Shown piece after piece: positions 2,579-39,254 of a stretch of DNA of 39,254 nucleotides (position 1 is the first letter of the stretch; the number at the start of each line of letters is the position of its first letter). Under the pieces are notes generated by a model. That model worked only from the letters and a program-made list of their open reading frames with translations, ran no database searches and had not been told where the DNA came from. Made by a program: the position numbers and the translations under genes. Origin of the DNA: a virus; UHGV virus genome UHGV-0143367; one strand, written 5' to 3'.

Positions 2579-2595
2579 AGTTGGATAAAGGTCTT

Positions 2596-3904: not shown

Positions 3905-3906
3905 GG

Positions 3907-4656: not shown

Positions 4657-4668
4657 GGGGTTCTCCTG

Positions 4669-4688: not shown

Positions 4689-4691
4689 AAC

Positions 4692-4713
4692 AAAAAACCC
4701 CGCAGAGCGGGGT
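4692..4713 (-). terminator. Rho-independent terminator downstream of the lipoprotein moron
   Basis: CCCCGC-agag-GCGGGG stem-loop followed by a U6 run on the minus strand. Confidence 0.55.
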
Positions 4714-4736
4714 TTGTGTGGGGGTGGGGGATGAAG

Positions 4737-5114: not shown

Positions 5115-5122
5115 ATATCCCT

Positions 5123-8656: not shown

Positions 8657-8685
8657 GAACAGCAGCCGGAGCCGGGGCGAGTTGG

Positions 8686-9030: not shown

Positions 9031-9092
9031 GACGATGATCCTGATGATGAATGAGTGAAGGGAAGCCGGGCCGGGTCAGCTATTAAATGGCG

Positions 9093-9566: not shown

Positions 9567-9578
9567 TTTTATCTCCGA

Positions 9579-9989: not shown

Positions 9990-9994
9990 AGGAT

Positions 9995-10375
9995 TTACTC
10001 TGGAACCGTAAACGTAAAATCGCGGATGAGGCGGTACTGTACGCGTCCGCTGGTCAGGGTGACTTTATCCTGCTGGATGCCACCGCGTTCAACATACTGG
10101 ACCGGATAGCTTTCAAGCTCACCGTGTACCAGCGTTTTCCACTCGTCCCATAACGCCTTATCCAGCGCCAGCATGTGGGTGTAGTCGTCAACGATGTACA
10201 AATTTACCTGCATCCGTACATCACAAAGCCCCGTACGCACCAGACCATCGCCGACCGGTGGATCGGAAATTCGCTGAAACGTGACCCCTTCCTGCACGCT
10301 GTCAGGCAGCAGCAGCGGGTACGCTTTCAGGCCCGTTATGCGCTCCAGCGCAGGTTTAATTGCCAGCTCGATCAT
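9995..10375 (-). CDS. Neck / tail completion protein
   Basis: 126 aa, synteny in head-tail joining module. Confidence 0.4.
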   Translation of the reverse strand: MIELAIKPALERITGLKAYPLLLPDSVQEGVTFQRISDPPVGDGLVRTGLCDVRMQVNLYIVDDYTHMLALDKALWDEWKTLVHGELESYPVQYVERGGIQQDKVTLTSGRVQYRLIRDFTFTVPE

Positions 10376-10700
10376 GGCGCCCGTCAGCCTCCCCCGTGAT
10401 GATCATGCGGTCCGGAAGTCGGTCAACGTTGCGAACGGTATAAACCCGGTCCTTTGTGGCCACCTTCCAGTCGATATCCACTTCACGCGGATAGAGAGTA
10501 AATTCACAGGTTTCGACCACCTGCTGCTGGTCCAGCGTCCGGATTTTCCGTCCTGAAATCAGCTCTTTCTTCGCCCAGGCTTTCCCCGCCTGCACTTCCT
10601 GCGCCGGAAGCGGCTCACCCAGCGGGCCTTCGCCAATAACGATGTAGCTGAACGACAGCCGGCAATTCAGCTCGCCGGGTTGCAGTGGTTTCTGGCTCAT
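10356..10700 (-). CDS. Head closure / head-tail adaptor protein
   Basis: 114 aa, synteny. Confidence 0.45.
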   Translation of the reverse strand: MSQKPLQPGELNCRLSFSYIVIGEGPLGEPLPAQEVQAGKAWAKKELISGRKIRTLDQQQVVETCEFTLYPREVDIDWKVATKDRVYTVRNVDRLPDRMIITGEADGRHDRAGN

Positions 10701-11026
10701 ACTGTGTGCTCCATCAGCGGAAACAGCAGGTAAGAGACGCCAAGTTCTGACGGCGTTCCTTCGCCGGCCCCTGTCGGGTTGAGATACCAGTGGGCGACCA
10801 TCATCTGCATGGCCAGCTGGATATCGTCATCAATCAGGTACGCCGGCTGGCCTTCCGGAAGTTTGTCCAGTTCATCCTGCGATTCTGCCAGGCGACAGTA
10901 ATACGAGCGCTCGATACTGCGACGCGCGGCACCAATCAGGCGCGTCAGCAGATCATCATGCTCGGTAAAATCCAGCTCGAGGCGCAGCTGGACCTTAACT
11001 TCATCCAATGTCGGTTTCATGGTCAT
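10697..11026 (-). CDS. Head-tail connector protein (gp6-like)
   Basis: 109 aa, synteny directly after the capsid module. Confidence 0.45.
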   Translation of the reverse strand: MTMKPTLDEVKVQLRLELDFTEHDDLLTRLIGAARRSIERSYYCRLAESQDELDKLPEGQPAYLIDDDIQLAMQMMVAHWYLNPTGAGEGTPSELGVSYLLFPLMEHTV

Positions 11027-11333
11027 CGTCTCCCCGACGAGGATTCAACGCACGCTTCGCATCTTCTGGCCAGGCTGCAATTTTGCGCGTAACCAGCTCT
11101 TCAGCGTATTCAGCATCGAATGCAGCGACATCAGCGCGCGAATAGCGATGATATGGCCCCAGGAACACAACAGCGCGACGTTCCGGCGCGGATTTCACCG
11201 CTGGGACCACGGTCCCAATTTCATCACCGGTAATCACACCGTCGACAATATTGGAGGTATCAATAATCGCATCAACACCATCAACGGAAGTTGTGGTGTC
11301 CGCGTCTGTTTCTTTTTTAGGTTTTCCAGCCAT
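11001..11333 (-). CDS. Hypothetical head-module protein with an embedded SopB-box palindrome
   Basis: 110 aa ORF between major capsid and connector genes; the motif TGGGACCACGGTCCCA (11202-11217) encodes ...GTVVP... in frame. Confidence 0.4.
   Translation of the reverse strand: MAGKPKKETDADTTTSVDGVDAIIDTSNIVDGVITGDEIGTVVPAVKSAPERRAVVFLGPYHRYSRADVAAFDAEYAEELVTRKIAAWPEDAKRALNPRRGDDDHETDIG
11202..11217. repeat. SopB-box-like inverted repeat TGGGACC-AC-GGTCCCA, identical to the F sopC core
   Basis: Direct sequence match; lies inside a coding region. Confidence 0.65.
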
Positions 11334-11414
11334 GGTCTATCTCCAGCTAAAGTGAATAAAAAAGGCCCGCTTAGCGGGCCTTTTCAGCATCGAACGAATC
11401 ACTATCGCGAACAA

Positions 11415-12704
11415 TTACCAGAGAACGCCGGTACCGAGCGCCAGACCTTCGACGTGACGGAAACCAATATCGTGCTCAACGATAACGCGGATCAGGGACT
11501 GGTTACGGGCGAACGCAGAAACGGTGTTGCCATCCGCATCGATGTAAGTTGCTTCACGCGAGAAATCGACCTTCATGTCTCCCTCTTCACCGATCAGCAC
11601 ATCGCTGAAGTCAGCGAAGTAAATCTCTGACTCGTTACCGCCGGTACCGAGGTTCGCCGGGATCGCGCTGGTACGCTCAATCGGATAGCCCTTCAGCATA
11701 CCGGTGGCCATTTCTGGATAGACCTTGTTCCCGTTGCCATCACGCAGACCAAACAGCTTCATGTAGGTACGGTTGGACATACCCCAGCCGCACTGCAGCA
11801 TGTTGCTGTTGCCATCCATGGTCATCAGGATAAGCCCATCCAGATAGGTGTCGATGTTCTGCAGCGTTGGGTCAGCATCCTTATCCCATGCTTTGAAGCG
11901 TGTCGCAGCGGTCGCAACTGCTTTCATGCCCTTCGGCGTGTCAGCGGTGCCATCATCGCGCAGGAAGGCTTTATCTTCGCGGGTAGCAATACCGCTGATG
12001 ATATCGCCCAGCACCAGCTGCTCAACGGAGAACCCGGCACGACCAATCAGCTGGTTCGACAGCGGAACCATACAGATCATCGTTTTCGCGCTGAGTTTCA
12101 CATCATCAAAGCTGGCGCCGCTGGCTTTCACATCCTTCCCTTCACCGACATAGCTGGCAGTCGAACCACCGGCCAGGCGTGGGAGCGCCAGATTGCCGTT
12201 CGGCAGTGGCACGGAGCGCGCACCCAGCTTACGAACGATGGTGCGGTCGCGCAGCAGCTCGATGACCTCGTTCTGCATGTTGGTCGGAACCAGCGCGCCG
12301 CCAGAACCGGCAGCAGTGCTGATCGCCATCGCGACCTGATTATCGTTCAGTTCCTTAGCGGCAAAGATCTGCGCATCGCCCAGGTTACCACCACCGGCGG
12401 CGATAGCCATAACCATGCGGGTCATGCTCGCGCCCTTGTACTGAGCGGGTTCGGCTTTCACATGAATCTCCGGCGCGCCAGTACCCATTGCGGATACCGG
12501 AACCGCTACCGCTGCTGCGGCGCGTTCTGCCGCTTCCAGACGGGTGATTTGAGCGGTGATATCGGTGAACTGTTGCTGCAGGCTGTGAAACTGAGTCAGT
12601 TGCTCGGCGGACAATACGCCGCCGCCCAGCTCAACCTGAGCCAGAGCCTGAACCTGATCGTTAATACCCGCGCGCTGACGACGTAATTCTTCAATCTGAG
12701 GCAT
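11415..12704 (-). CDS. Major capsid protein, HK97 fold, with N-terminal coiled-coil delta/scaffold domain
   Basis: 429 aa; N-terminal ~100 aa coiled coil then capsid-like body; strong terminator-like hairpin downstream (11360-11395); position after protease. Confidence 0.85.
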   Translation of the reverse strand: MPQIEELRRQRAGINDQVQALAQVELGGGVLSAEQLTQFHSLQQQFTDITAQITRLEAAERAAAAVAVPVSAMGTGAPEIHVKAEPAQYKGASMTRMVMAIAAGGGNLGDAQIFAAKELNDNQVAMAISTAAGSGGALVPTNMQNEVIELLRDRTIVRKLGARSVPLPNGNLALPRLAGGSTASYVGEGKDVKASGASFDDVKLSAKTMICMVPLSNQLIGRAGFSVEQLVLGDIISGIATREDKAFLRDDGTADTPKGMKAVATAATRFKAWDKDADPTLQNIDTYLDGLILMTMDGNSNMLQCGWGMSNRTYMKLFGLRDGNGNKVYPEMATGMLKGYPIERTSAIPANLGTGGNESEIYFADFSDVLIGEEGDMKVDFSREATYIDADGNTVSAFARNQSLIRVIVEHDIGFRHVEGLALGTGVLW

Positions 12705-12775
12705 GATTTTTCTCTCTTTTTAGACATAAAAAAGCAGCCATATGGCTGCTTTCAGGGTGACGCGTAGGCGTCGGG

Positions 12776-13753
12776 TTAAAGTTGGGTCTGCATGTCCATG
12801 ACTGAGGCCCGTAACAGGATTGATTGCTGGGGTTTTCGGTACTTTGCTGCAATCGCGTTGATAGCCGATTGTGGGTCGGAAACTTCATCAGCTAACCCGG
12901 CAGCAACCGCGTCAGCACCTGTATACAGCGCCGCCTGCGTATCGATAACCGCCTGTTGCGCCATGCCGCGGTATTCAGCAACCGAACTGGTGAATACCTC
13001 ATACATCTGGTCGATCATGCCCTGAAACATCGCCTGGGCCTGCTCGCTCAATGGTTCATGCGGCGAGCCGTTGTTCTTGTTATCACCTCGGAAAATCGTC
13101 GTAAACTTCAGACCGATATTCTCTTCCCACTTTGACGCCTCCATGTGCTCCATGATGACGCCAATCGACCCCACACCGCTGGTCTGGCTGACGATAACCT
13201 TGCTACATGCCGACGCGATAAAATAGGCCGCTGAGTAGGCACTGAAATTCACGATAGCGGTGATCGGCTTCACGTCACGCGACTGGAAAATATAATCGGC
13301 CAGTTCTTTACAGCCGACTGCAGCTCCGCCACCAGAGTTAATATCCAGCACGATTTCACTGACGGCCGCATCGTTCAGCGCAACATTAATCAGGCTGCGG
13401 ATTCGCTCGTAGCTGGTCAGCTCCGTACAGGCCGCCGTAATCTGGCCGCGTCGCGGCACCAGGATGCCGTGAACAGGGATCACCGCAATACCACCGGCCG
13501 CCTGCGTTTGCTCAGGCTCTGGGGCATCATCGGCTTCGAACGCCATAGACAAATCCGGAGAACCATTCCCCTGCAGGCGCGGGACCAGAACGGCTTTCAC
13601 CGAGTCCATAATCTGGCGCGTTGCATAGTGCGGAACACCGAAGACCTGATCCGCAAGGTGCGGCAGGTTAATCATTTTTAGTTTCATGGTTTCCACCAAA
13701 AGAAAAGCCCGCTGCTGCGGGCTTGTTTCAGGTACGTGCCAGAATGGCTTCAA
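12776..13753 (-). CDS. Prohead maturation protease (S49/ClpP-like)
   Basis: 325 aa; S49 family-like segments (GGGAAVG, SAYSAAYFIASA); between portal and capsid. Confidence 0.75.
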   Translation of the reverse strand: MKPFWHVPETSPQQRAFLLVETMKLKMINLPHLADQVFGVPHYATRQIMDSVKAVLVPRLQGNGSPDLSMAFEADDAPEPEQTQAAGGIAVIPVHGILVPRRGQITAACTELTSYERIRSLINVALNDAAVSEIVLDINSGGGAAVGCKELADYIFQSRDVKPITAIVNFSAYSAAYFIASACSKVIVSQTSGVGSIGVIMEHMEASKWEENIGLKFTTIFRGDNKNNGSPHEPLSEQAQAMFQGMIDQMYEVFTSSVAEYRGMAQQAVIDTQAALYTGADAVAAGLADEVSDPQSAINAIAAKYRKPQQSILLRASVMDMQTQL

Positions 13754-14990
13754 TCTCTTTCAGCTGTGAGGCTGAGGCTTTGCTGACGCCCTGAATAACC
13801 TTGGCGCTATCCACCATATTCAGCGGTGTCAGGTAGGTTTCACCACCAGGAATAGGCGGCAGATTCTCCATGCGGCGGATATCATTAACCGATAACCAGC
13901 CCCACTGGCGCCCCAGCGCGTACGATTCATAGCGCGATTTCTGGTCCCCTCGCAGCAGCGAGGAAACGTTGAACTCGATATACAGATCCCGGCGTTCGCT
14001 GGGCAGTAGCAGATCGCGCATCATCGCGCTTTCATGTCGCTTCAGCCATGCCAGCAGCGTGTACATCACGTATTGCAGACCCTGGTGCTCGATGTTGTTG
14101 TTGGTCGATTGCTCCAGCAACTGAATCATGTGCGGCGGGACTTTATACAGTCGGCAGATTTCGTTCACCGACCATTTACGCGATTCCAGCAGCTGCGCTT
14201 TCTCGTTGTCCTGAGACAACTGCTTATAGCTCATGCCCTCCTGCAGCAGCGCGACAGAAAACGCATTACGGACGCCGGAATAACGGTCCGTCCATTTGGC
14301 CAGCAGCTTATCAATCGCCTCCTGGCTCTTGATTGCCGCCGCCTCTCTTGGTCGTTCAATAACACCGCTCATTGTCGTGCCGCGCGCAAATACCTGGGCT
14401 GCGTGCTGCTCGACGGCCAGGCCGAGGCCGAGAACATCCGCGTTCGTCTGGATTGGCGACGTGCCGACATAACCGTCGAACGAGAAATATTTAACGTGAT
14501 GCACCATGCGCATCGGCAATGTTTCACCGAGATCGGGGAGATGGTAATAAGGCATCGCGTCCGGGCCTTTCATCACAATGACCTTTTTCGGGTTCACTGG
14601 AATCAATTCCGTCGGTTCACCTTTCCCGTTGCGCTCAATCAGTGCAAACGAGTTGCCTTCAATCCCCAGCGCGCCCTGCTGCTGCTCGTAGTACTCAAAA
14701 GAGGTGTCTTTCTTGTTCGGCTGGGAGTGAATCAGGTCATAAAGCGGGTGATCGGTCGCCCTAATACGCCCGCCTTTTTCATCACGTCGATACAATTCAC
14801 ACGGCAGCTGCGCCACCGACTCCGCCAGAAGCGTCACACATGCCCGGACCGCCGACATGGCCATGGCCGTTTCCGGCGTGATAATGATGCCCGATGAGCT
14901 ACTGCTGGCACCGAACCCACCAAGGACGGTCCAGTCGCCTCGGTTTACTCCGGGTTTTGATGCTCCCCGGAAAAATTGGGGGATAAACAT
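13728..14990 (-). CDS. Portal protein (HK97 family)
   Basis: 420 aa, position after terminase large subunit, typical size. Confidence 0.8.
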   Translation of the reverse strand: MFIPQFFRGASKPGVNRGDWTVLGGFGASSSSSGIIITPETAMAMSAVRACVTLLAESVAQLPCELYRRDEKGGRIRATDHPLYDLIHSQPNKKDTSFEYYEQQQGALGIEGNSFALIERNGKGEPTELIPVNPKKVIVMKGPDAMPYYHLPDLGETLPMRMVHHVKYFSFDGYVGTSPIQTNADVLGLGLAVEQHAAQVFARGTTMSGVIERPREAAAIKSQEAIDKLLAKWTDRYSGVRNAFSVALLQEGMSYKQLSQDNEKAQLLESRKWSVNEICRLYKVPPHMIQLLEQSTNNNIEHQGLQYVMYTLLAWLKRHESAMMRDLLLPSERRDLYIEFNVSSLLRGDQKSRYESYALGRQWGWLSVNDIRRMENLPPIPGGETYLTPLNMVDSAKVIQGVSKASASQLKEIEAILART

Positions 14991-15175
14991 TAGTTGTTCC
15001 CCTTGTTAGCTGACTGACCCAGATATTTAGCCCACATACATGAGCAAAAAACACAGAGAACGCCGCCGGTGATTAGTCCCGCTGCGGGAGAAAATAGCCA
15101 TGCGCCGGCAGAGATCATGACGGCGCCGGCCAGACCAATCAGAAAAATCAGAACCGAGATCGCTGCTGTTAACAT
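14990..15175 (-). CDS. Small hydrophobic protein between terL and portal
   Basis: 61 aa, two predicted transmembrane stretches, tightly packed between flanking genes. Confidence 0.3.
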   Translation of the reverse strand: MLTAAISVLIFLIGLAGAVMISAGAWLFSPAAGLITGGVLCVFCSCMWAKYLGQSANKGNN

Positions 15176-16890
15176 GCCACGTCTTCCTCGTCATAAATGG
15201 ATTTGCCGCCCCCGCCTCCGCCGTTCTGCAGCGCGCGCGTAAGGGCGTTAAACAACGCTGTCGCGCCGTCGATTTTTGATTGTTTATCGCCTTTTGTCGG
15301 GCGAACGACGTCATCGCTGCCGGGAATGAACTTCCCGATAACGTTGCTGATACACCAGGTGAGAATCGGATTGCCGTCGTGGTGGAATCTCCCGCCAGCG
15401 AGCGCCGCTTCCAGCTCGTTCATCGCCGGAGACATGTTCTGGAAGTTCTGCGTGATCTCCACACATTCAACCCCGTCATCCTCCAGTAAATGGCGCAGCG
15501 CTGTCGCGCCGGCGGGGTCGATGTCCGCCTCTTTAATCCTGATTTCCTGCCGCAGATCGAGGATGCTGGCGTGAATCTCACGATAATCAGCCTCGGCGCC
15601 ATCGGTCGCCTCCAGTACCTTCATCGTGACGAATTTCCGGTACCGGTCAGCAGCTTTAAGGTGCTTAGGATCGGTGCTGTGAACTGTATCTTCCGGGACC
15701 CAAAATTTGGGGGCCACGGAGTAGTAGTGCTTCTTGCCCTCAATTTCCCGCGTGAATAAAGGTATGCAGGCGTTCATATCGAGCTTTTTCGCGAGATCCA
15801 GCCCCAGATTGGCATCGTCATCAGTAAAGTCCGACAGCTTCAGCGTCTTATCTTCGGCTTCTTTCCACTGCTCCATATTGAAGAACGCTGCGGCACCGGA
15901 AACCCACATATTCAGACGCTTTGTCTTAAATGCGTTCGTCATACGCGGGACTTTCTTTGCCACTTCCAGCAGCTCGACCAGATCGCTGTATTTCACCGAG
16001 ACATCGAGGTTCGGGTTGGCTTTAATCAGGTTTGCCGGGTCAGTCCAGTCGTCCCCCTGATCCAGCTCGTAAATCATGCCAAACAGTCGATCGTTCGGGG
16101 TGATTTCGTCCAGCGCCTCTTTGACCTCTTTGTCCTTGTCGTAACAAGGTGATTCGAGGTCAGTACCGGCAGTGGTAATAATCAGCGTCAACGGCTGAGA
16201 ACGGGCGCCCATGCCCGTCGTCATCGCCTGGTAAAGACGGTCTGTTTTGTGCTCGTGGTATTCGTCAATGATGGCGCAGCTGGGTGAGTCACCATCACCA
16301 GGGTCGCCGACCACCGGCGCAAATATGGAGCCGTCCGGACGCGTCAGCTTCTCGGTCCAGACTGAAACATCAAACCGCCGGCGCAGCGCTGGCAGCATTT
16401 TTGCTATTTGTTGGGCTGGGGTGAAGACCTTCTTGGCCTGCCTCATCTGCGTGGCGCCACAGTAGACTTCTGCGCTATTTTCGCCATCAGCGCAGAACAT
16501 ATACATACCAATGCCCGCAGAGATAAACGATTTACCGTTTTTACGGGCAACGCGGATGTAGGCTTCCTTAAAGCGTCGTTTTTTGTTGGATTTCGTAACC
16601 CAGCCGAAGATCGAGCAGAAAGCGAAGGCTTGCCACATTTCCAGCTTCAGTTTCTGCCCTTTGAGGTCCCCACTGGAGTGGGGTAGCAGCTGAACAAATC
16701 GACATGCACGTTCAGCTAAATCCCGGTCAAATCGGTACGGATAATCCTTATCCAGTGATTTTTTCAGGTCGTCAAAATGGCGCTGGCAGGCCAGCCGGAT
16801 GTATTTACAGGCGACTATGCTGCCGCTGAGCACATCACGCGCATACTGATTCGCCAGATTGACGTTCGGGTATGCGGCCATATAACTCAT
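15169..16890 (-). CDS. Terminase large subunit
   Basis: ORF-track ORF starts at a TTG directly after the terS stop; more probable start is the ATG for MSYMAAYPNV at ~16890. Size and position typical of TerL. Confidence 0.85.
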   Translation of the reverse strand: MSYMAAYPNVNLANQYARDVLSGSIVACKYIRLACQRHFDDLKKSLDKDYPYRFDRDLAERACRFVQLLPHSSGDLKGQKLKLEMWQAFAFCSIFGWVTKSNKKRRFKEAYIRVARKNGKSFISAGIGMYMFCADGENSAEVYCGATQMRQAKKVFTPAQQIAKMLPALRRRFDVSVWTEKLTRPDGSIFAPVVGDPGDGDSPSCAIIDEYHEHKTDRLYQAMTTGMGARSQPLTLIITTAGTDLESPCYDKDKEVKEALDEITPNDRLFGMIYELDQGDDWTDPANLIKANPNLDVSVKYSDLVELLEVAKKVPRMTNAFKTKRLNMWVSGAAAFFNMEQWKEAEDKTLKLSDFTDDDANLGLDLAKKLDMNACIPLFTREIEGKKHYYSVAPKFWVPEDTVHSTDPKHLKAADRYRKFVTMKVLEATDGAEADYREIHASILDLRQEIRIKEADIDPAGATALRHLLEDDGVECVEITQNFQNMSPAMNELEAALAGGRFHHDGNPILTWCISNVIGKFIPGSDDVVRPTKGDKQSKIDGATALFNALTRALQNGGGGGGKSIYDEEDVAC

Positions 16891-16900
16891 CCATAAAAAA

Positions 16901-16916
16901 TGGGACCGTGGTCCCA
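16901..16916. repeat. SopB-box-like inverted repeat TGGGACC-GT-GGTCCCA at the terS/terL junction
   Basis: Direct sequence match; overlaps the terS stop codon. Confidence 0.65.
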
Positions 16917-16917
16917 A

Positions 16918-17376
16918 TTAAAAATCGTCGAAATCGTTTCCCGCTTCTCTGCCACCTTGCCCCGGATTAGCAACTCTGACCCGGCTGTTCGGGTCCAGTT
17001 TCAGAACGACGCTCAGCCTGATGAGCTGCGAAATGTACTTATCGCGCGCTTTCACCGCGGCGCCCAGCTTCTGGCCGCCGGCAGCAGTTTCATCGCCTAT
17101 CCCGTCGCCTTTGATTTCCTGATTCGCGTCGTACAGCAGCTGCACGGTGTTGCAGTACTCCATCAGCAGGTAGCAATCTTCCATCTCAAAATTTCCACGG
17201 TCGATCATCAGCCGGCAGGTCCGTTTCCAGGCATCGACTGCCATATCACCCAGCAATTCCTCTGGCGGTGAAACGGCGCGAGTTACGGAACTGACCTGCG
17301 TGCCGGCATTGTTCGGTTTCCGGCCTCCGCCAGGAGAGCGCACTCCTGTCGCCATTCGTGCACCTCCATGCATCAA
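16918..17376 (-). CDS. Terminase small subunit
   Basis: 152 aa immediately upstream of terL; Gly-rich N-terminus. Confidence 0.7.
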   Translation of the reverse strand: MMHGGARMATGVRSPGGGRKPNNAGTQVSSVTRAVSPPEELLGDMAVDAWKRTCRLMIDRGNFEMEDCYLLMEYCNTVQLLYDANQEIKGDGIGDETAAGGQKLGAAVKARDKYISQLIRLSVVLKLDPNSRVRVANPGQGGREAGNDFDDF

Positions 17377-29066: not shown

Positions 29067-29369
29067 TTAAATATTCATCTTTTTTGCAAGACTTTCATTT
29101 TGTTGCTCTGTATAGCGCTTTAACCAAAGCTCCTGAATATGCTGGTCACCTGGTTTATTTGCGCCACACCACTCCGCAATAACGGCATTTCGACACCAGT
29201 CAGGATGTGTTCTGAATCCGCAAGATGGACAAAACATCAAATATTCATTGCGTAGCTCAGATCTAACTAATTTCGGTTTTACTGCGTGGTGATGCATTAC
29301 TTGTTTGCAAAGGCAGGAAGGAATTTCACCGCCTGTTGCTGATATGCTTCTTCCGTAATTGGTCGACAT
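29067..29369 (-). CDS. Small Cys/His-rich (zinc-ribbon-like) protein
   Basis: 100 aa with CLC...H, CPSCG, C...C clusters; function unknown. Confidence 0.4.
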   Translation of the reverse strand: MSTNYGRSISATGGEIPSCLCKQVMHHHAVKPKLVRSELRNEYLMFCPSCGFRTHPDWCRNAVIAEWCGANKPGDQHIQELWLKRYTEQQNESLAKKMNI

Positions 29370-29991
29370 GTATTAACGCCTCCCGATCCATTTGAACACC
29401 GCAGGCCAACATGACATCCCAGCGATTTTTATAATTCTTCCGCCATAGGTCATATTTCACACCACATAGCTGGCTCAATTCTTCCTGGCTGTATTTAAGC
29501 TCGCCGCGGTTAATGAAATTTTTTGATTCCTGTAGAGCCAACCAGGCAAGTGCTTTTAAGTTGCTTTCAGTCTTGCCGTTCATTTTTGGCGATTTGCTTT
29601 CAGCCAAGTTAATCAGCAGGGAATGCCAGATATGTGTTGTCAGTATTGTTTGATATTCAAATGAAATTGAATCGCCGTAGCAGTAATTCAACCAGGATTT
29701 ATACGGCTCAGGCATTTTCAATAACGCGCTACGCCATGACACCTGGCTAAAAATGGCTGGCGATACCGGGATCATGCTCGTATGGTAACGCTTGCCTTCT
29801 CTGTAGCTGATTGGCTCGGCATCAATGACAATGACAGTGTCGTTATCGATATCAATTTCACGCTGCGGCTTTGCAGTAAATCGGCTCTGCAGTGGCGCAC
29901 GTTCTGCCATCGCGATGATCTGATTGCGGTGCGATTTTGAGAACGACAAAAGCGCTGCAGTAAGCTCGTTGCGAACAAAATTAAACTGCAT
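29326..29991 (-). CDS. Hypothetical regulatory protein (candidate late antiterminator Q by position)
   Basis: 221-aa ORF downstream of cro in the immunity region; no motif confirmed. Confidence 0.35.
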   Translation of the reverse strand: MQFNFVRNELTAALLSFSKSHRNQIIAMAERAPLQSRFTAKPQREIDIDNDTVIVIDAEPISYREGKRYHTSMIPVSPAIFSQVSWRSALLKMPEPYKSWLNYCYGDSISFEYQTILTTHIWHSLLINLAESKSPKMNGKTESNLKALAWLALQESKNFINRGELKYSQEELSQLCGVKYDLWRKNYKNRWDVMLACGVQMDREALIHVDQLRKKHISNRR

Positions 29992-30634
29992 ATTTGCCCC
30001 CTGCTTGATGGCCTAGCGGGCTTAGCGCACTAAGTTCAACGTGGTCCGGTTTAATGCCGGTGGCCATTTCTATATTCAGGATTTCCCGATAGAGGTATGA
30101 CGACAACTCATACAGGCGGTTCTGCAGCTGCTTCAGCGCGTGCTGGTCATCACTGCCATCGTATACACCGTCCTGGGCTGGCGCTGAGTTGGCGAGAACG
30201 GCACCGAATTTCACAGTGATCTCGTCAATTTCAGCGTCGACAGAATCAACACGAATACGGTTGTACTTAGGCATGCGGACCCATTGCAGACCCTGCATTG
30301 CGGCCAGCTTTTGAGAGCACTTATTACGGTACTCTTCCGGAAGACATGACAACCACGTTAACACCCAGTCTGCAGGCATCGGCGTATCACCAGCCAGGAC
30401 GCGCTGTGCACGCTTAATGCAACGGCTACGCCAGCGCATGTAATCCGTGACATTGATGCCTTCAGACCCCATATCAACAAGTCCCTGGAGTTCCAGAGCC
30501 GGAATCAAGCGCATTGTAGAGAATTGTGCGACACTGCCGCCGGTTTCATCGAGCATCCGCAAGGTTGCCCGTATAACCACTGATGACATTGTGTCTCGCG
30601 ATGGACGTTTATTCTGCCCCATGGTCTGAGTCAT
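29981..30634 (-). CDS. Hypothetical early protein downstream of cro (candidate regulator)
   Basis: Start at ATG 30634 with AAGGA Shine-Dalgarno; overlaps cro 3' end. Confidence 0.4.
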   Translation of the reverse strand: MTQTMGQNKRPSRDTMSSVVIRATLRMLDETGGSVAQFSTMRLIPALELQGLVDMGSEGINVTDYMRWRSRCIKRAQRVLAGDTPMPADWVLTWLSCLPEEYRNKCSQKLAAMQGLQWVRMPKYNRIRVDSVDAEIDEITVKFGAVLANSAPAQDGVYDGSDDQHALKQLQNRLYELSSYLYREILNIEMATGIKPDHVELSALSPLGHQAGGKYAV

Positions 30635-30815
30635 CCTTTTCTTTATGCAGTGTGTAATCAGATTTGAGTCGGCCATTTGTCTTAACTTCCAGCTCGTACT
30701 GCCTAAGCATGGGGACATCCTCTCCCCATTTGTAGATCGCAACGCGAGTACAACCGAGCAGTTCGCAGAGTTTGTTTATGCCGCCGCAGGCGGCTATGGC
30801 GTCTTTTGTTTTCAT
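30609..30815 (-). CDS. cro: Cro-like HTH regulator
   Basis: 68 aa; HTH segment (AIAACGGINKLCELLGCTRVAIYKW); divergent from the repressor gene. Confidence 0.7.
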   Translation of the reverse strand: MKTKDAIAACGGINKLCELLGCTRVAIYKWGEDVPMLRQYELEVKTNGRLKSDYTLHKEKDDSDHGAE

Positions 30816-30930
30816 GAAATGATACTAACCAAGCTATACAAGTTTTGTAAAGTGTACTTGTCAAAATTTACATTAATATTCCCTTTAGCCTTGTATAGCT
30901 AGCTATACAGATTTGATTTAATATCTCTCT
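30816..30930. promoter_or_regulatory. Divergent cro/cB promoter-operator region with 18-bp perfect palindrome TGTATAGCTAGCTATACA (30892-30909) and half-site AGCTATACA (30832-30840)
   Basis: Minus-strand -35 TTGACA (30859-30864) with 17-bp spacer to TTGTAT (30836-30841); palindrome lies ~20 bp upstream of the apparently leaderless cB ATG. Confidence 0.5.
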
Positions 30931-31560
30931 ATGGAAAAACGTGGTGATTGGCTGAAGGCTCGCCGTGAAGAGCTGAAGAAGCGAAATAAATCAAAGTTCT
31001 CAGTGAGAGCTGTTGCCGAACGCATCGGTATTACCGGTGCTGGCCTCTCGCATCTCGAAAACAGCGATGCTATGCCCGCGTTAGATCTGGCTATCAAGCT
31101 GGCGCGAGAGCTGGGCCGTCCTGTTGAATGGATCTTAACCGGTGCTGGCGGGGATGTGTTCCGTGGAGTCCCTGTTATTGGTTCTACTGCTACCGGTCCC
31201 AATCTGGAAATGATAAACAGCGGTCTGGCTCAAAACTGCCGGGAATTCGTTGATATCAATGTACAGGATGCAGCCTTATACGGCCTGATGGTCGATAACG
31301 ACGTTGCAGCGCCGTATCATATCGGTGAAGTACTGATCGCAGACCCTAATCGCGAGCCGGTGACAGGGGAAGATGTGGTGGTAGTCACAAAATCTGGCAA
31401 TGATACGTTTATTAAGATGTTAGCGTCTAAACGTGATGGCAAAGTGTTTCTTGACGCGCCGAACGACAGATCTCAGCGCGTGATAATCGATCTTGACGAA
31501 ATTATTTTGATTCATCCCGTTATCTGCGTGGCTAAATCTATAGCAGTTAAGGCCAGATAG
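30931..31560 (+). CDS. cB: Prophage repressor CB (CI-like HTH-XRE with C-terminal S24/LexA-like domain)
   Basis: 209 aa; N-terminal HTH (FSVRAVAERIGITGAGLSHLEN), C-terminal beta-rich domain; divergent from cro. Confidence 0.75.
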   Translation: MEKRGDWLKARREELKKRNKSKFSVRAVAERIGITGAGLSHLENSDAMPALDLAIKLARELGRPVEWILTGAGGDVFRGVPVIGSTATGPNLEMINSGLAQNCREFVDINVQDAALYGLMVDNDVAAPYHIGEVLIADPNREPVTGEDVVVVTKSGNDTFIKMLASKRDGKVFLDAPNDRSQRVIIDLDEIILIHPVICVAKSIAVKAR

Positions 31561-31841: not shown

Positions 31842-31868
31842 CTGCGCAACTGCGCAGCGTCTTTTTTT
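31842..31868 (+). terminator. Terminator-like hairpin plus T7 run ending ~10 nt before the repA start codon
   Basis: CTGCGC-aact-GCGCAG stem followed by CGTCTTTTTTT, then GGTGA Shine-Dalgarno and ATG. Confidence 0.4.
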
Positions 31869-31878
31869 GGGTGAAATA

Positions 31879-34800
31879 ATGAATTTAACGGAATATTTTC
31901 AACACAAATTTAACTCTGACCCGTTTTCGCTGCTTGATGCAGCATCAAATGAACTGAGTGATCTCGCGAACGCTGCCGGTATCGACTGGCATAAATGCGC
32001 TGGAGATATTCAGCTTTCTGCCTCTCGCGGTTCCGCTGAAAAATTCACAAAGTATGCCCACCATGGTCCTGCCGTTACTGATCCAAAGCTGAAAGGCAAG
32101 GTTGAGATTTACTCCCGCATGGAGTGTTCTCAGGACGGTATCAAATACCCGTTCATCAACTTTGTCTGTAAAGGTGCTGACGCTGGCGTATGGAGTGGCT
32201 TCCAGTTCCTTATCTCTGAATACCGTCGATACAAAGAACAGAACGGTGGGACCGTGGTCCCACTGTCTGCGCGTGAACTGGAGCAGCGTAAACGTGCTGA
32301 GGCGCGCCGCCATGAACGTGAGCGCCAGCAGGCTATCTCTGTGTTTATGGAGTCGCAGCGCCGCGACGCTGACCTGAACGAATACCTGCAGTTCTCCGCC
32401 GCATTCGCCAAGGCACCGGCAGAAGATGGTTCATGGCCATATGCGGTGAAGAAAGGCATCAGCTCTGTTTTCTCATACTGTAACGTAAGACGCGTAACCC
32501 ATTGGGACCATGGTCCCAATTCTAAAGCGGTTAAAAAACAAACTGTTATGGCGATTCCGCTGTCGCATATTGATGACCGTCGGGAAGACCGTGAATCTCG
32601 CGTTGGGCCGATTGTTGGCTGGCAGCGAATCACCGAGAGAAACGACAAGCTGCAGACCCGCGCTGTAGATTCCGGTGACTTTGCCGGTTCGTGTCACATC
32701 ATCGGCCAGCTGCGCGGCGCAACCAGGATCTGTGTTGTTGAAGGGTTCGCGACTGGTGCCAGCGTGTTCGCTGTAGCGAAAAAACGCTTTGATGCTGTTG
32801 TTGTGGCTGTGTCAGCAAATAACGTTATCAAGGTTGTTGATCAGCTGGTCAGCCTGTACCCAGGCATGGAAATCTGGTGCGCACTGGATAACGACCAGAA
32901 ATCGGCGCGGAATGGAAAAGGCAATACCGGGTTAAGAGTCGGCATCGATGTGATGAAGAAATTCCCGCAGGTCCGCTGCACATTCCCGATTTTCGACAGC
33001 AGCGAAACCGAATTAAGCGACTTTAACGATCTCCACCAGGCGCGCGGCGCCACCGAAACCAACCGCCAGCTGTTTTCAAAACAGAACCGCCTGCAGCTGC
33101 CAGGCAATTCCTTTGATGCTGAAATGCTGTCTCTGGCCGTTGCGCCGGTTTCCGATCGCCGCGCGTTCTCGCGCCAGCTGGTACGCTGCATTGATGCCGG
33201 CATGATGCAATGCCCGTCCAAGTTATCCCCGCAGGAGCTGATCTCGCTGATAAAAATGAAGCTGGACCAGCTCGGCGCCGACAAAGCGCTGCACGGTACC
33301 GTGTATAACCGCGTTAAACGCGCCTTCAAACAGAAATGCGACAAGGCCCAGGCTTTCCGATCATTCAGCGAGCGCGTAACGAACCCGGCAATACGCCCCG
33401 ACCACATCACCTATAAGCGGTTTGAAACACCCCACATGACCAAGGAAGTGCTGGATTACATCAAAGCACTGAGCGGCCCGGTAATCGTCCGTGCCGGCAT
33501 GGGGTCGGGCAAATCCAAACACTTGCTGCGCCCTATGATGCACAGCGCGCAGCGCGGCGTTTCGGTGGCGCACCGCGTTTCGCTGATTGGTGGCCTCTGG
33601 GACATGATGACGCGTGCCGACGATGGCCGTCGCATGAATTGCGACATCCTGCACTACCAGGACCCCGGCTATCAGGAGCTGGCGCCGTATGCCAGCAAAC
33701 TGACAATTTGTATTAACTCTATCGTGAAGGGCTGCTGGCAGCCACTGATGCGCAAACACGATTTCTTTGGCCTGGATGAAGCCACCCAGGGCCTGCGCGC
33801 CACGCTTTCCGGTAAAGCGATGGCGCACCCGGTTGATGTATTCAACCGTCTTATCGACTCTATCGCGTACAGCGATGACCACGCGCTGCTGGTTGATGCA
33901 GACGCCAGCGATATCCTGGTAGACCTCTGCGAACTGGCGCTGGCCAAACGCGAACAAACAGGCCTGTCGACCTGGACACAGATCCACGTCATCGAGCTGC
34001 CGGTTGATGTGAAGTACAAAAAAGCCGATGGCACGCGCGAAGCGCGCCGCGTACTTTACACCGACACCGATCGCATCATGGTTGAAGTACTGAAAGCCGT
34101 GGCTGCCGGCGAAAAATTCCTGCTGGCCACTGACTCAACCAACTTTGCCGAACAGTTGCTACTGCAGCTGCGCGACCGCTGGCCAGAAAAGAAATGGCTT
34201 TACGTCAGCCAGGACACAAAGCCGGATCAGGAAGTTGTGGCGTTTACCGACGCGCCGAACCAGCGCGCTAAACTCTACGATGGCCTTATTTATAGCCCGG
34301 CTATCAGTTCTGGCGTATCGATCGAAGAACGGCACTTCACCCGCCATTTCGGCTGCTTCTGCGGCCAGGTAGTGCCGTCCGACGCCATTCAGATGCTGCG
34401 CCGCGACAGGACCGCCACCGAATTTATGGTCGGCCTGAACAAGCTGCCTGGCGTACGCGAAGAGAACGCCGACAACATCCGCCGTGGGTTCCTGCAGGCA
34501 CTGCTGGAAACTGCCGAGATAAACGAAGAATTTACCGACGCCATCCTGGATGGCGACCGCCTTTCCCTTGGTCTGGCGGACACCACCTATGTCCGCATGA
34601 AATTTAAAGTTGCCGCGATGGAGGCCCAGGCCAGAAACGATTTCGCCAACAACCTGATCTGCATTCTCTACGCCGATGGCTATAACGTCAGCCACTTGGC
34701 CGAAGACTCGCTGGCCAGCGAAACCGGCAAAGAACTGCGTAAGGCATCGAAAGAGCGGGTCTGGGATATGACCGTTCTGCGCCATATGGAAGTGGAAACC

Positions 34801-35868
34801 CCGGACGAAGACGAACGCGACGAACTGATGGGCAAGCGATCACTATCTGAAGATGAGCAGGCGCAACTGGCGCGCTGGGATATCGAAAAAGAGTTGATGC
34901 TGGATGTCAGCCCGGAATCTCTGAAATTCCTGCTCGATGGCGGGAAGAAGAAACTGACGCTGGCCGAACTGATGACGATGGATGAAATGACCGCCGCACG
35001 CATTGACCGTGAGCAGCAGGCTTTCACGTTCACCTACCAATTCCGCAAAGGGCCGCGTAACGAATTTGTAACGATCACCGCGCTCAACCGCGAAGCAGCT
35101 GATGCGCAGTTCGACCGCATGCAGCCAGGAATAACCGGCTACACCGTCCAAAGCCGCCCGGTGATGGAAGTAACCCAGCGTACGTACGCATCGCTGCACC
35201 GTAAGGCCGCCAGGGAGTATTTCTCCACCTGCGGTATTAACCCAGATACCGGCGCCGGTGAAGCCAGCCAGGAAGGTATGGCGGAAGCTATGGCCAAACT
35301 TATGGACCCAACCACCGCGGATCGTTTCAACAACGTCCTGCGGTTCGGTGGCTATATAAACCCTAAAGGCCGCCAGAAACGCCCCGAGACGGTTTTCAAA
35401 CAGATCTGTGAGGCATTCGGTTACGCGACTCAGAAACGCCGCCTACCGCGTTCACAGGGCCTCGGTTACGTGTGGTCAATCGTCCCCGAATCCTGGGAAT
35501 TCATTCACGGAATTCTGGCGCGTCGCGCCGAGGCATCACTGTCGTTTGTCCAGATGAAACTGGATGTGGGGGCACCGGAAGAACCGGATCTCGATTGCCG
35601 ATCAAATATAGATGTAAGATCCCAATCTGGATCTGCTGAGACGGCATTTATTGAGGCAACGCTGACGACGATTGAAGAGGCTATCGCTGCGATGCCGGTG
35701 CCATTTGCATGGCTGAGAACCGCACTGACGCCGGAAGAACTGGCACAACTCGCGACTATGCCGCCACGGTTGATACAGGCGACGGTTGCCGGGCTGTTTA
35801 TGGCTGACAATATGTGGCAACTATCAGATGGCCAATACAACGAACTGAAGCGGTTGCAGGCGGTTTAA
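31879..35868 (+). CDS. repA: Replication protein RepA (primase-helicase) of N15-type linear plasmid-prophage
   Basis: About 1329 aa from ATG 31879 (ORF track begins at upstream TTG); Walker A GMGSGKSK; size and position next to cB and telN as in N15. Confidence 0.85.
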   Translation: MNLTEYFQHKFNSDPFSLLDAASNELSDLANAAGIDWHKCAGDIQLSASRGSAEKFTKYAHHGPAVTDPKLKGKVEIYSRMECSQDGIKYPFINFVCKGADAGVWSGFQFLISEYRRYKEQNGGTVVPLSARELEQRKRAEARRHERERQQAISVFMESQRRDADLNEYLQFSAAFAKAPAEDGSWPYAVKKGISSVFSYCNVRRVTHWDHGPNSKAVKKQTVMAIPLSHIDDRREDRESRVGPIVGWQRITERNDKLQTRAVDSGDFAGSCHIIGQLRGATRICVVEGFATGASVFAVAKKRFDAVVVAVSANNVIKVVDQLVSLYPGMEIWCALDNDQKSARNGKGNTGLRVGIDVMKKFPQVRCTFPIFDSSETELSDFNDLHQARGATETNRQLFSKQNRLQLPGNSFDAEMLSLAVAPVSDRRAFSRQLVRCIDAGMMQCPSKLSPQELISLIKMKLDQLGADKALHGTVYNRVKRAFKQKCDKAQAFRSFSERVTNPAIRPDHITYKRFETPHMTKEVLDYIKALSGPVIVRAGMGSGKSKHLLRPMMHSAQRGVSVAHRVSLIGGLWDMMTRADDGRRMNCDILHYQDPGYQELAPYASKLTICINSIVKGCWQPLMRKHDFFGLDEATQGLRATLSGKAMAHPVDVFNRLIDSIAYSDDHALLVDADASDILVDLCELALAKREQTGLSTWTQIHVIELPVDVKYKKADGTREARRVLYTDTDRIMVEVLKAVAAGEKFLLATDSTNFAEQLLLQLRDRWPEKKWLYVSQDTKPDQEVVAFTDAPNQRAKLYDGLIYSPAISSGVSIEERHFTRHFGCFCGQVVPSDAIQMLRRDRTATEFMVGLNKLPGVREENADNIRRGFLQALLETAEINEEFTDAILDGDRLSLGLADTTYVRMKFKVAAMEAQARNDFANNLICILYADGYNVSHLAEDSLASETGKELRKASKERVWDMTVLRHMEVETPDEDERDELMGKRSLSEDEQAQLARWDIEKELMLDVSPESLKFLLDGGKKKLTLAELMTMDEMTAARIDREQQAFTFTYQFRKGPRNEFVTITALNREAADAQFDRMQPGITGYTVQSRPVMEVTQRTYASLHRKAAREYFSTCGINPDTGAGEASQEGMAEAMAKLMDPTTADRFNNVLRFGGYINPKGRQKRPETVFKQICEAFGYATQKRRLPRSQGLGYVWSIVPESWEFIHGILARRAEASLSFVQMKLDVGAPEEPDLDCRSNIDVRSQSGSAETAFIEATLTTIEEAIAAMPVPFAWLRTALTPEELAQLATMPPRLIQATVAGLFMADNMWQLSDGQYNELKRLQAV
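32247..32262. repeat. SopB-box-like inverted repeat TGGGACC-GT-GGTCCCA inside repA
   Basis: Direct match; encodes ...GGTVVP... in the RepA frame. Confidence 0.65.
32501..32520. repeat. SopB-box-like palindrome ATTGGGACCATGGTCCCAAT inside repA
   Basis: Perfect 20-bp palindrome; encodes ...HWDHGPN... in the RepA frame. Confidence 0.7.
35585..35640. other. Candidate replication-origin element inside the 3' end of repA: four GATC sites in 47 bp with inverted repeat AGATCC...GGATCT
   Basis: GATC at 35587, 35600, 35618, 35630; the N15 ori maps within the 3' part of repA (recalled, not verified here). Confidence 0.3.
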
Positions 35869-37111: not shown

Positions 37112-37133
37112 AACCGGGACCACGGTCCCGGTT
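37112..37133. repeat. SopB-box variant AACCGGGACC-AC-GGTCCCGGTT
   Basis: 10-bp arms around an AC spacer; inner arms GGGACC/GGTCCC as in the other copies, outer position differs (C/G instead of T/A); convergent intergenic region. Confidence 0.55.
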
Positions 37134-37140: not shown

Positions 37141-39042
37141 TTAATTTTCTGGGAAATACGCAAACCATGCTGATTTCATGGCACTGCTGATACTATCCGC
37201 CGCGCCACTCCAGGCGTATAGCTGCCCCTTGTATTTGAAACGGATCGTCCAGCTGCCGTCGTCACTACGAACGGGCGCGGAGAAGCGTGGACGAGTGTCT
37301 ATTGGTACTGGTTTTTCCTCTTCGGCCTCGGCGGTCACGCCATCTTCTCGGCCTTCCTCTTCAGCTTCCAGCGCCTGGGTATCGTCACTGGTTTCCTCTC
37401 TATCGGCACCGCTATCGCCAGCGAGGTCGTCTTCACCATCCAGTTCGTCAGAGGTTATGACAATAGAGGGCGCATCTGCATTGTTAATCGTACTGCTCAT
37501 AGCCAGCGCCTCAGCAACAAAATCAAGATACCGGCGAACTAGCGTCGGGTTAAATCCAGCATCTCGTAATATTTTTGTGTTGATGACGATATCAGCTGAT
37601 TCCTCCACCAGCCGCTTTGTTGTTTCATGAATACGGATACCGGCATCGCCCCTGGCGAAGCCAGGCATTTGGTCGTCAAGCGCTTGTAGAGCAGCGAGGC
37701 GCTTATTTTCAATCCCCGTTTCCGGGCGCCAGCTGCGTGAGAAATTATGCAGTTTGAACTGTTTGTAGTGCAGCTGCGTATTTTCGTCGTCATGCCCCAG
37801 GATTTCAGAGAAAAAGACGTCCTCATCAACGTTTTTCCAGCGCGGGTCGTAGCGGAAAAACGCCTCATAGGTGATACGCGCATAAATTGCGCGCGTGTCT
37901 TTGAATGTTCGGCGGTCGTCGCCGAAGAACAGCTTCGCGTGCTGGTTAAATGTGTTACCAAGAATTGATGCGATGCGCACATTTGCGGCCCGGTAGCTAT
38001 CATCGTTCAACAGAGATCTGATTTCGTCAAAATCAGCCGCTGCGGGGCAACTTCTCAGTTCATTTAAACGTTGAACGAACAGGGCCGGGTCGCACAGCAC
38101 ATAAATTTTACGCCCCTTATCCTCGCCGGTTCGTTTTTTGGCCTGCCCGTAGAAAATAACTTCATACTTGCCGGTAACCTCAAATTCTCCCTGAACCATC
38201 ACCTCAATCAATCGACGCCCGGATACGGCTGCTAGCGCGAACGCCAGCGGCGCCATATCCTTACGTTGCGTGATAAGTGATGGTTCAAACGCCTTGTAGA
38301 TCTGCTCGGTCACAGCCTGCATATATTTGGGGTAGTCCAAGAGTACAGTTGACCGTTTCTTCTCGCTGAGCACCTCGCCCCAGCGCTGCTGTATCGATGA
38401 GCGTTCTGCCGGACTCAACTGCAGGTGATACAGAATTTCATGGTTGATTTTCAGGCCGTTCAGATCATCCAACAAGCGGGTTCCCTGTTGGAACGCGGCA
38501 TGCATTTCGGTTTCGACCGACTTCCAGTCTTGGCTGGTCAACGCGTTAAGATAGATGCTCCAGGCAGGGTATTTTTTTGCCAGGCGCGTCAATTTTTTCT
38601 CCGCAGCCGGTCCGAACTTCATACCCGAAAGCACCTCCGCCAGCGGCATAATTTCCTTCAGTTGGCCCTGTAGATTGCCGTATGCCTGACGAATATCTGC
38701 CGCAGGCATAGATTGCCACGCCTGTAATTCAGCACTGTAGGCGGGGTATTTTGCCGCTAACTTTTCAATGCTGCTGGTGAAGTGATGGTGCAAACGGTCG
38801 TCGAACTGTTTACGAATACGGGTCATATACGCGTTATAAGTATTGGCTGTAATGCGTTTCTTCAAACCGTTACCACGGAACTTCCTTTTATCTAAAAATA
38901 GCGCGTTTTTAACACGTGTAGCCGCAGCCTTATATTTTCGTGTCTTATCTCCCTGTGGGATGTCGGACGCTTCGATAGCGTCAACGTCCGCCACCAAATC
39001 AGAGATGATTTTACCAATTCCGCCATCGCCTAGCTTCGCCAT
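37141..39042 (-). CDS. telN: Protelomerase (telomere resolvase) TelN
   Basis: 633 aa; long blocks match N15 TelN as recalled (QGDKT, NALF.DKRKFRG.GL.KRITAN, HLQLSPAER.SIQQRW, MAPLAFALAAVSGRR, WKNVDEDVFF.EILGHDDENTQLHYKQFKL.NFSR.WRPE, MPGFARGDAG); acidic C-terminal tail; GAGGGGGG Shine-Dalgarno. Confidence 0.95.
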   Translation of the reverse strand: MAKLGDGGIGKIISDLVADVDAIEASDIPQGDKTRKYKAAATRVKNALFLDKRKFRGNGLKKRITANTYNAYMTRIRKQFDDRLHHHFTSSIEKLAAKYPAYSAELQAWQSMPAADIRQAYGNLQGQLKEIMPLAEVLSGMKFGPAAEKKLTRLAKKYPAWSIYLNALTSQDWKSVETEMHAAFQQGTRLLDDLNGLKINHEILYHLQLSPAERSSIQQRWGEVLSEKKRSTVLLDYPKYMQAVTEQIYKAFEPSLITQRKDMAPLAFALAAVSGRRLIEVMVQGEFEVTGKYEVIFYGQAKKRTGEDKGRKIYVLCDPALFVQRLNELRSCPAAADFDEIRSLLNDDSYRAANVRIASILGNTFNQHAKLFFGDDRRTFKDTRAIYARITYEAFFRYDPRWKNVDEDVFFSEILGHDDENTQLHYKQFKLHNFSRSWRPETGIENKRLAALQALDDQMPGFARGDAGIRIHETTKRLVEESADIVINTKILRDAGFNPTLVRRYLDFVAEALAMSSTINNADAPSIVITSDELDGEDDLAGDSGADREETSDDTQALEAEEEGREDGVTAEAEEEKPVPIDTRPRFSAPVRSDDGSWTIRFKYKGQLYAWSGAADSISSAMKSAWFAYFPEN

Positions 39043-39054
39043 GTGCCCCCCTCA

Positions 39055-39176
39055 TTATCGTAACAATATGCGCAAACATTACACCTAAAAGGCTAAAAAT
39101 CAACCTATAAATCATCGTAACATAATTCTAATTATGTGTAAATAATTATCGTAACTGTTAATTAATTTATCGTAAC
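39055..39176 (+). repeat. Four direct copies of ATCGTAAC (mostly TTATCGTAAC) between the telN start and the telomere palindrome; inverted copy GTTACG at 39193-39198
   Basis: Exact 8-mer at 39057, 39114, 39148, 39169 in an AT-rich stretch; candidate TelN occupancy/regulatory repeats. Confidence 0.55.
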
Positions 39177-39200
39177 ATCATTTGCATATACTGTTACGTT

Positions 39201-39254
39201 AAACGACACACATTATTAAATATACGCGCGTATATTTAATAATGTGTGTCGTTT
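39201..39254. repeat. Telomere resolution site (telRL-like): perfect 54-bp palindrome centred on TATACGCGCGTATA
   Basis: AAACGACACACATTATTAAATATACGC|GCGTATATTTAATAATGTGTGTCGTTT is its own reverse complement; central (CG)3 in TATA context resembles the N15 telO core; located ~160 bp upstream of the telN start. Confidence 0.85.

Follow-up and report, generated by a model that had tools for sequence, protein, structure and literature searches.

The 39,254-nucleotide (nt) stretch of viral DNA UHGV-0143367 (the window, in what follows) very probably comprises ~39.2 kilobases (kb) of the ~46.5-kb genome of an N15-type telomere phage of Citrobacter freundii that is maintained as a linear plasmid-prophage; its right edge would then be the hairpin telomere proximal to the protelomerase gene, telN (the equivalent of telL). 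An N15/phiKO2-type linear plasmid-prophage with hairpin ends is also what an initial annotation of the window had proposed, and the proposal is borne out by the protelomerase, RepA, the immunity switch, the SopB-type sites, and the sopAB genes of identical contigs. What does not survive is the description of the terminal palindrome as complete (unresolved): contigs of the same phage that hold both arms of the tel site have a perfect arm of 20 nt, followed by a different far arm.

The palindrome itself lies where it had been placed. The window ends in a perfect 54-base-pair (bp) inverted repeat with arms at 39201-39227 and 39228-39254 and a 0-nt spacer (27+27), the final base of the repeat being the final base of the window. 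It begins 158 nt upstream of the telN ATG, its centre lies 185 nt upstream, and it encloses a 14-bp core that is present in a single copy in the window, against 0.01 copies expected by chance. A tel site directly upstream of the protelomerase gene and bearing a conserved CG-rich core is the arrangement of N15; the core is predicted, by homology, to be the site of staggered cleavage and the tip of the hairpin. The repeat and its parts are as follows.

39208..39247 (no strand): the native-tel-site part, a 40-bp perfect palindrome (20+20) centred on 39227/39228; the perfect arm is 20 nt in the contigs L001 and L002, described below.
39221..39234 (no strand): the 14-bp core TATACGCGCGTATA, common to N15, phiKO2, and Salmonella, Erwinia and Pseudocitrobacter relatives.
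39248..39254 (no strand): the bases GTCGTTT, found only in the fold-back; the reverse complement of 39201-39207, not the native sop-side arm, and cut at centre+27.

The distinction between the first and the last of these segments comes from comparison with other assemblies. An exact-sequence look-up places the identical TelN protein in 24 contigs, and two public contigs of ~46.5 kb (L001 and L002) represent the same phage with DNA on both sides of the tel site. These two-arm contigs match the window with 100.000% identity over 12,107 nt, and the match ends exactly at 39247, that is, at centre+20. The far arm in L001 and L002 then continues TCTGTTAATC / TCTGTTAATCATTC, reading TCTGTTA where the window has GTCGTTT (39248-39254). 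The last 27 nt of the window repeat the 27 before them in reverse complement, and the native far arm differs from them at +21 to +27; past 39227/39228 the fold-back continuation is GTCGTTTAACGTAACAG, as opposed to the sop-arm TCTGTTAATCATTC of the two-arm contigs. In a fold-back reading, the perfection of the palindrome over 54 bp comes from its last 7 bases, copied in reverse complement from the window's own telN-side arm. By comparison with these contigs, the native telRL site would be perfectly palindromic over 40 bp and imperfectly so in its flanks, in the manner of N15, where a core is combined with outer repeats. Neither IMG/VR nor the JGI metagenome contigs yielded an exact match to the 40-bp tel core (0 matches in each).

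Inspection of what lies beyond the palindrome in public assemblies, as the initial annotation had suggested, turns up both of the outcomes that it had envisaged: contigs that cross the site to sopAB (L001 and L002) and contigs that read through into a fold-back (L005, L007 and L003). The window edge is of the second type. L005 is a 10,534-nt perfect fold-back with arms of 5267 nt, in which two telN genes stand face to face; L007, assembled by SPAdes (a NODE contig) from another sample, shares its end point of +27 with the window; in L003 the sequence extends 58 nt beyond the tel centre. A contig that folds back at the tel centre, the sequence signature of a hairpin end, is thus seen in the window, L005, L007 and L003. 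A further contig, L009, ends at +20, where the fold-back and telRL sequences part.

The position of the edge has a simple arithmetic. A simulated canonical k-mer (de Bruijn) walk through a hairpin, represented as a sequence X followed by its reverse complement, halts (k-1)/2 beyond the tip; with k=55, a standard SPAdes k, this amounts to 27 nt. It is inferred that a de Bruijn assembler with k=55 halted 27 nt past the tip, generating an apparently perfect 54-bp palindrome at the end of the contig. The window edge is therefore best read, as far as sequence goes, as a fold-back around a hairpin tip or across a replicated telLL junction, which has the identical sequence. That assemblers run past hairpins onto the opposite strand has been described (PMC12460055), as has the formation of telLL and telRR by replication and their resolution by TelN (PMC12624138). 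A fold-back edge is therefore sequence evidence for the resolved, linear form of the element, and it strengthens the central claim of the initial annotation at the same time as it overturns its account of the palindrome.

The reading that it replaces, in which the palindrome is a telRL still unresolved and intact, from circular or virion-derived DNA, and the window stops there by chance, is improbable. It has in its favour that the palindrome is perfect and has the conserved core, and it is possible in principle, since the perfect tel arms of relatives range from 11 to 27 nt and that of Pseudocitrobacter reaches the full 27. Against it stand the 20-nt native arm and the other bases at +21 to +27 in contigs with 100% identity to the window over 12.1 kb, and the coincidence that would place the window end exactly (55-1)/2 past the centre, as in an independent SPAdes contig. 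An imperfect telRL would also be unique at k=55, so that no assembler would stop there, and the window is in the cos-joined prophage order (see below).

A second alternative attributes the fold-back to the library: snap-back or template-switch chimeras arising at the 40-bp palindrome of unresolved circular or virion DNA, with no hairpin involved. Palindromes do give inverted chimeric reads, as is generally known, and the adapter that is fused 19 nt past the tel centre in an Erwinia contig (L013, below) shows that library events occur at tips. Reads dominated by telRL would, however, run into the sop arm or stop at +20, like L009, whereas the window reaches +27; the same fold-back is found in several independent samples and assemblers, and a Salmonella record contains whole-plasmid head-to-head dimers. 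This explanation is slightly less probable still than an intact telRL.

Several considerations nonetheless weigh against a hairpin telomere at the window edge, and they are gathered here. A de Bruijn assembler with k=55 is presumed for the window; a covalently closed hairpin, a duplex telLL junction and a library snap-back chimera all yield the same fold-back; and the evidence for the linear hairpin form is assembled sequence. The window is without the far arm, so that the 20+20 structure of telRL is taken from contigs of other samples, albeit ones that are 100% identical over 12.1 kb, and sopAB and the second telomere lie outside the window.

The protein that would act at this site is well defined.

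37141..39042, minus strand: telN, protelomerase (telomere resolvase), 633 amino acids; predicted active site R277, K302, R384, H417 and nucleophile Y426.

All four Pfam protelomerase domains are present in TelN: TelK_N, TelK_muzzle, ResT-TelK_cat and TelK_stirrup (PF22853, PF20849, PF16684 and PF20818), at E values of 1e-24 to 3e-41; the scores far exceed the gathering cut-offs, giving TelN the TelK-type domain architecture. Residues 9-532 match the crystal chain of TelK (2v6e_A) at E=1e-211, and homology at the level of sequence to the solved TelK structure settles the fold. In a five-way alignment of the window TelN with N15 TelN, phiKO2 TelK, PY54 Tel and a Salmonella homologue, R277, K302, R384, H417 and Y426 occupy invariant columns; their equivalents in TelK are R275, K300, R383, H416 and Y425, the catalytic Arg-Lys-Arg-His set and the Tyr nucleophile of the TelK structure. 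The predicted activity of TelN is the cleaving and joining of a palindromic duplex into two hairpins.

Assignment of the 633-amino-acid open reading frame (ORF) to TelN thus stands, on the four TelK domains and the match to 2v6e_A, and the comparison with N15 TelN, phiKO2 TelK and PY54 Tel for which the initial annotation had called (tblastn and global alignment) finds protelomerase homology to each. The "extensive identity" to N15 TelN that had been proposed holds in the sense of full-length homology and fails in the sense of near-identity: it amounts to 55% by tblastn and 58% by global alignment. The corresponding values are 57% and 59% for phiKO2 TelK, 41% and 43% for PY54 Tel, and 62.7% and 65% for the Tel protein of a Salmonella plasmid-prophage. 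RefSeq already lists a protein of exactly this sequence, WP_368904266.1, annotated "protelomerase family protein [Citrobacter freundii]". Clustering at 90% places it in a group of 61 members, drawn from C. freundii, C. braakii, Kluyvera and Salmonella, and it is to this cluster that the host assignment is owed; relatives in GTDB representative genomes are 39-61% identical and pointed to no host.

Partition provides an additional line of evidence for a plasmid lifestyle. Beyond tel, L001 and L002 continue with a TacA/acetyltransferase pair and then sopA/sopB; these genes, taken together with candidate centromere sites in the window, constitute a SopAB-type partition system like that of N15. The site nearest telN is one of nine exact matches retrieved by a dispersed-site scan.

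37116..37129 (no strand): GGGACCACGGTCCC, one of nine exact SopB-type (F sopC-like) palindromes.

The other exact GGGACC-NN-GGTCCC sites are at 4672, 11203, 16902, 19843, 23320, 29047, 32248 and 32504, and a one-mismatch copy at 696 brings the matches in the window to 10 (9 exact, 1 with a single mismatch), against 0.06 expected. Five of the sites are intergenic and two lie within repA; most conform to the extended consensus tGGGACCayGGTCCCaat. The F sopC site is TGGGACCACGGTCCCA (PMC3597684), and N15 has four dispersed inverted repeats, GTGCGACC-NN-GGTCGCAC (PMC7205306). The half-site of the window is thus of the F sopC type and the dispersed layout of the N15 type, with more than twice the four sites of N15. 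The gene pair between sopA and tel consists of a TacA-like antitoxin and a GNAT acetyltransferase resembling the TacT toxin (L001 5185-6046 and 2418-4765; L002 likewise), and may serve the plasmid prophage as an addiction module.

The remainder of the window has the content expected of such a phage. Its gene order is telomere, telN, repA, repressor/cro/Q, (cos), terminase, head and tail, and the principal features are these.

31867..35868, plus strand: repA, a large multidomain replication protein of the N15 RepA type, 1329-1333 amino acids; full-length match to phrog_4913 ("replication") at E=0, with primase PHROGs and Toprim_3.
29326..31560 (no strand): the immunity/regulatory switch as a whole, from PHROG matches.
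29326-29991, minus strand: Q antiterminator (PHROG).
29981-30742, minus strand: cII-like gene (PHROG).
30609-30815, minus strand: Cro (PHROG); the identical gene in L002 has P22_Cro.
30931-31560, plus strand: divergent repressor of the CI/CB type (HTH_3, Phage_CI_repr).
1..17376, minus strand: virion module (PHROG) with partial J, I/K/L tail genes, tape measure, major tail protein, major capsid protein, protease, portal, TerL and TerS.
1-2593, minus strand: central tail fibre J, truncated (PHROG).
5473-8448, minus strand: tape measure (PHROG).
11415-12704, minus strand: major capsid protein (PHROG).
15169-16917, minus strand: TerL (PHROG).
18372-18986, minus strand: HNH endonuclease (HNH Pfam).

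A RepA-type replicase, a CB/Cro/Q region and a complete tailed-phage virion module are all features of N15, and the RepA and the cB/cro switch of the initial annotation are confirmed, with RepA at 31867-35868, the repressor at 30931-31560 and Cro at 30609-30815. The Salmonella homologue of RepA is annotated as "plasmid replication protein, CyRepA1 family". The minus strand also carries two DNA methylases, an exonuclease/Lar gene and an RdgC-like gene (PHROG, Pfam); the plus strand has three small genes in addition to the repressor and RepA, after which telN is again on the minus strand.

Between the HNH gene and terS, which is downstream of it, is ~1 kb of DNA with few coding sequences (in the 17377-18986 region); cos is usually found at this place in HK97-like packaging modules. 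Continuity of the window over 17377-18986 fits the cos-joined prophage form: since HNH and TerS are continuous across the presumed cos, the order is that of the plasmid-prophage and not that of the virion. Two observations concern tail-fibre sequences. The 326-amino-acid ORF at 18718-19698, far from the tail module, has an N-terminus resembling a J segment (phrog_13555; more weakly phrog_2589 and phrog_31), and a Pfam scan gave it no match. The window starts within the J gene, and the tail-fibre region is also where L001 and L002 are interrupted; it is probably variable or repeated in host genomes, fragmenting assemblies.

Gene content also bears on the least probable of the alternatives, for which there is scarcely any room: that the element is a defective or chromosomally integrated remnant with a protelomerase gene and a chance palindrome. 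Nothing specific speaks for it, apart from the fact that the window is cut within J and that the element is not seen whole. Against this, the virion, replication and immunity genes are complete, the window has no chromosomal flank, the ~46.5-kb contigs hold the whole element with sopAB, and by chance the core palindrome would be expected in only 0.01 copies. Among the scanned ORFs of the window (which include some of the small ORFs), PHROG and Pfam showed neither an integrase nor another recombinase family, which, within that scope, upholds the statement that the window has no integrase.

Megablast of the tel region and the tail region against 50,697 phage records, and against E. coli complete genomes, gave no match; against 72,556 plasmid records it gave short or ~74%-identical matches only. 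There is no close annotated genome in the phage, E. coli and plasmid collections searched, and DNA similarity at the level of the genus Ravinvirus (N15) or of the phiKO2 species was not found. The window phage would accordingly form, judging by these comparisons, a separate, divergent lineage within the known telomere-phage group, outside the N15 species and genus and the phiKO2 species.

N15 itself (an Escherichia phage, Ravinvirus N15) has its genes in the same order: tel, telN, repA, the immunity switch and a lambdoid siphovirus module, sopAB being located on the opposite arm. It shares the TelN domain set, the active-site residues, the 14-bp core TATACGCGCGTATA, outer repeats of the CACACA type and dispersed centromere palindromes (PMC7205306). 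The spacer between core and outer repeat is CCCATTA in N15 and the AT-rich TTAAATA in the window, the perfect arm is 11 nt as opposed to 20, the centromere half-site is GCGACC rather than the F-type GGGACC, in 4 rather than 9-10 copies, and the host of the window phage is Citrobacter. The Klebsiella phage phiKO2 (TelK, PDB 2v6e; linear plasmid pKO2) serves best as a structural reference. Its tel core is the same, an TTATCGTAACA repeat ~30 nt from the centre is shared, and the head genes of phiKO2-like Klebsiella plasmids are ~74% identical in DNA to those of the window; it differs in its perfect arm of 14 nt, in having two TCGTAAC copies only, and in its larger genome of 51.6 kb. Yersinia phage PY54, of the same general organization, has a long perfect palindrome (21-nt arm) flanked by an inverted repeat whose importance in vivo has been a subject of discussion (PMC10612081); its Tel is 41-43% identical, and the match of its core is limited to TACGCGCGTA.

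The closest annotated relatives are in Salmonella enterica subsp. diarizonae/arizonae (NZ_CP117191.1 and NZ_CP082957.1), with the same local order of sopBA, tel, telN, DUF5448, RepA and repressor/Cro. They differ from the window phage in that DNA similarity is confined to short stretches, in a 13-nt perfect arm with another spacer, in length (49.9 kb), and in a serine recombinase gene on the sop arm. One of these records has a bearing on the ends of the molecule. NZ_CP082957.1 (L023, 8570-12625) is 99,702 bp long, twice the length of the 49,855-bp monomer record NZ_CP117191.1, and was deposited as circular; in it telN(-) and telN(+) stand opposite one another, with the tel site between them. 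The record joins two copies of a ~49.85-kb telomere phage head to head, an artefact of long-read passage through a hairpin, and such a fold-back dimer in a "circular" 99.7-kb record points to hairpin ends. The longest contigs with the window TelN or a protein at least 90% identical to it, at 93,120 and 93,930 nt (~2 x 46.5 kb), are probably further fold-back dimers. A separate observation is that the Erwinia tasmaniensis contig NZ_JBLREF010000012.1 (L013, 1-95) has the Nextera mosaic-end adapter AGATGTGTATAAGAGACAG fused 19 nt past the tel centre; the start of this contig is untrimmed adapter at another fold-back telomere end.

The DNA flanking the tel site has a structure of its own.

39043..39200 (no strand): telN leader/telomere-proximal region, AT-rich (~30% GC), with four ATCGTAAC repeats, one inverted copy and a promoter-like site.

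All four exact copies of ATCGTAAC in the window fall within this segment (39057-64, 39114-21, 39148-55 and 39169-76), with the inverted copy at 39193-98; the promoter-like site for telN, on the minus strand at 39142..39114, is overlapped by one of the repeats. In the two-arm contigs, TGTTACGAT(A/G) arrays are mirrored on both arms, with four repeats per arm reading outward from the hairpin tip and an inverted TGTTACGAT-type copy ~30 nt from the tel centre, amounting to 9 copies in 520 bp (L001 6295-6815, both arms) against 0.18 expected. Their spacing is kept in the Salmonella relative, which has the same array layout although its Tel is only ~63% identical; the array is reduced in phiKO2, and N15 and PY54 have a single copy, which in N15 is at +155, in contrast with the dense tel-flanking arrays of the window phage. 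Flanking repeats of uncertain role have been reported for N15 and PY54 (PMC12624138, PMC10612081). A literature search with the TGTTACGAT motif, by sequence, retrieved unrelated primer or barcode matches only. The repeats were considered as SopB sites and rejected, the sequence being different, and also as a sop promoter, again rejected, as they adjoin tel and are not upstream of sopA. A tentative suggestion, for which the chances are rather slim, is that the arrays bind a dedicated telomere-associated factor or the little-understood C-terminal part of TelN, building a higher-order telomere complex that might serve end protection, control of resolution or autoregulation of telN. N15, which retains one TGTTACGAT copy, is not known to form such a complex.

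These elements can be fitted to the general mechanism described for telomere phages (PMC10612081). After infection the genome would circularize at cos; a TelN dimer would bind telRL and, by homology with TelN and TelK, make staggered cuts around the centre through Tyr426, each strand then being rejoined to its own complement to form the telL and telR hairpins. The resulting linear plasmid would be replicated by RepA, with replication of the tips generating telLL and telRR palindromic junctions that TelN would again resolve, while SopAB, encoded on the other arm, would act in plasmid partition at the dispersed GGGACC-NN-GGTCCC sites, of which there are nine or ten. A further role of TelN in N15 is to protect the hairpins from SbcCD (mechanism after PMC10612081 and PMC12624138). 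Short reads that rounded the covalently closed tip, or crossed the identical telLL junction, would continue into the reverse complement past the centre, and the sop-arm end should, under the same k=55 model, likewise lie 27 nt past the tip, reading ...CAGAACACATTATTAAATATACGC/GCGTATATTTAATAATGTGTTCTG.

The first consequences of this analysis are for the reading of assemblies. Where a short-read contig stops (k-1)/2 beyond a palindrome centre next to a protelomerase gene, the stop is diagnostic of a hairpin end and should not be taken for an intact telRL, and double-length "circular" records like NZ_CP082957.1 are fold-back artefacts. Telomere phages have recently been shown to be widespread in Enterobacteriaceae (PMC12042878), and a divergent Citrobacter lineage, its exact TelN already deposited in RefSeq, is now added to them. 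With 55-59% identity to the studied enzymes, a retained 14-bp core and a changed spacer, this TelN is a natural variant for study of the site specificity of TelN and TelK, and together with its site it is possibly an orthogonal protelomerase/site pair for the production of linear DNA.

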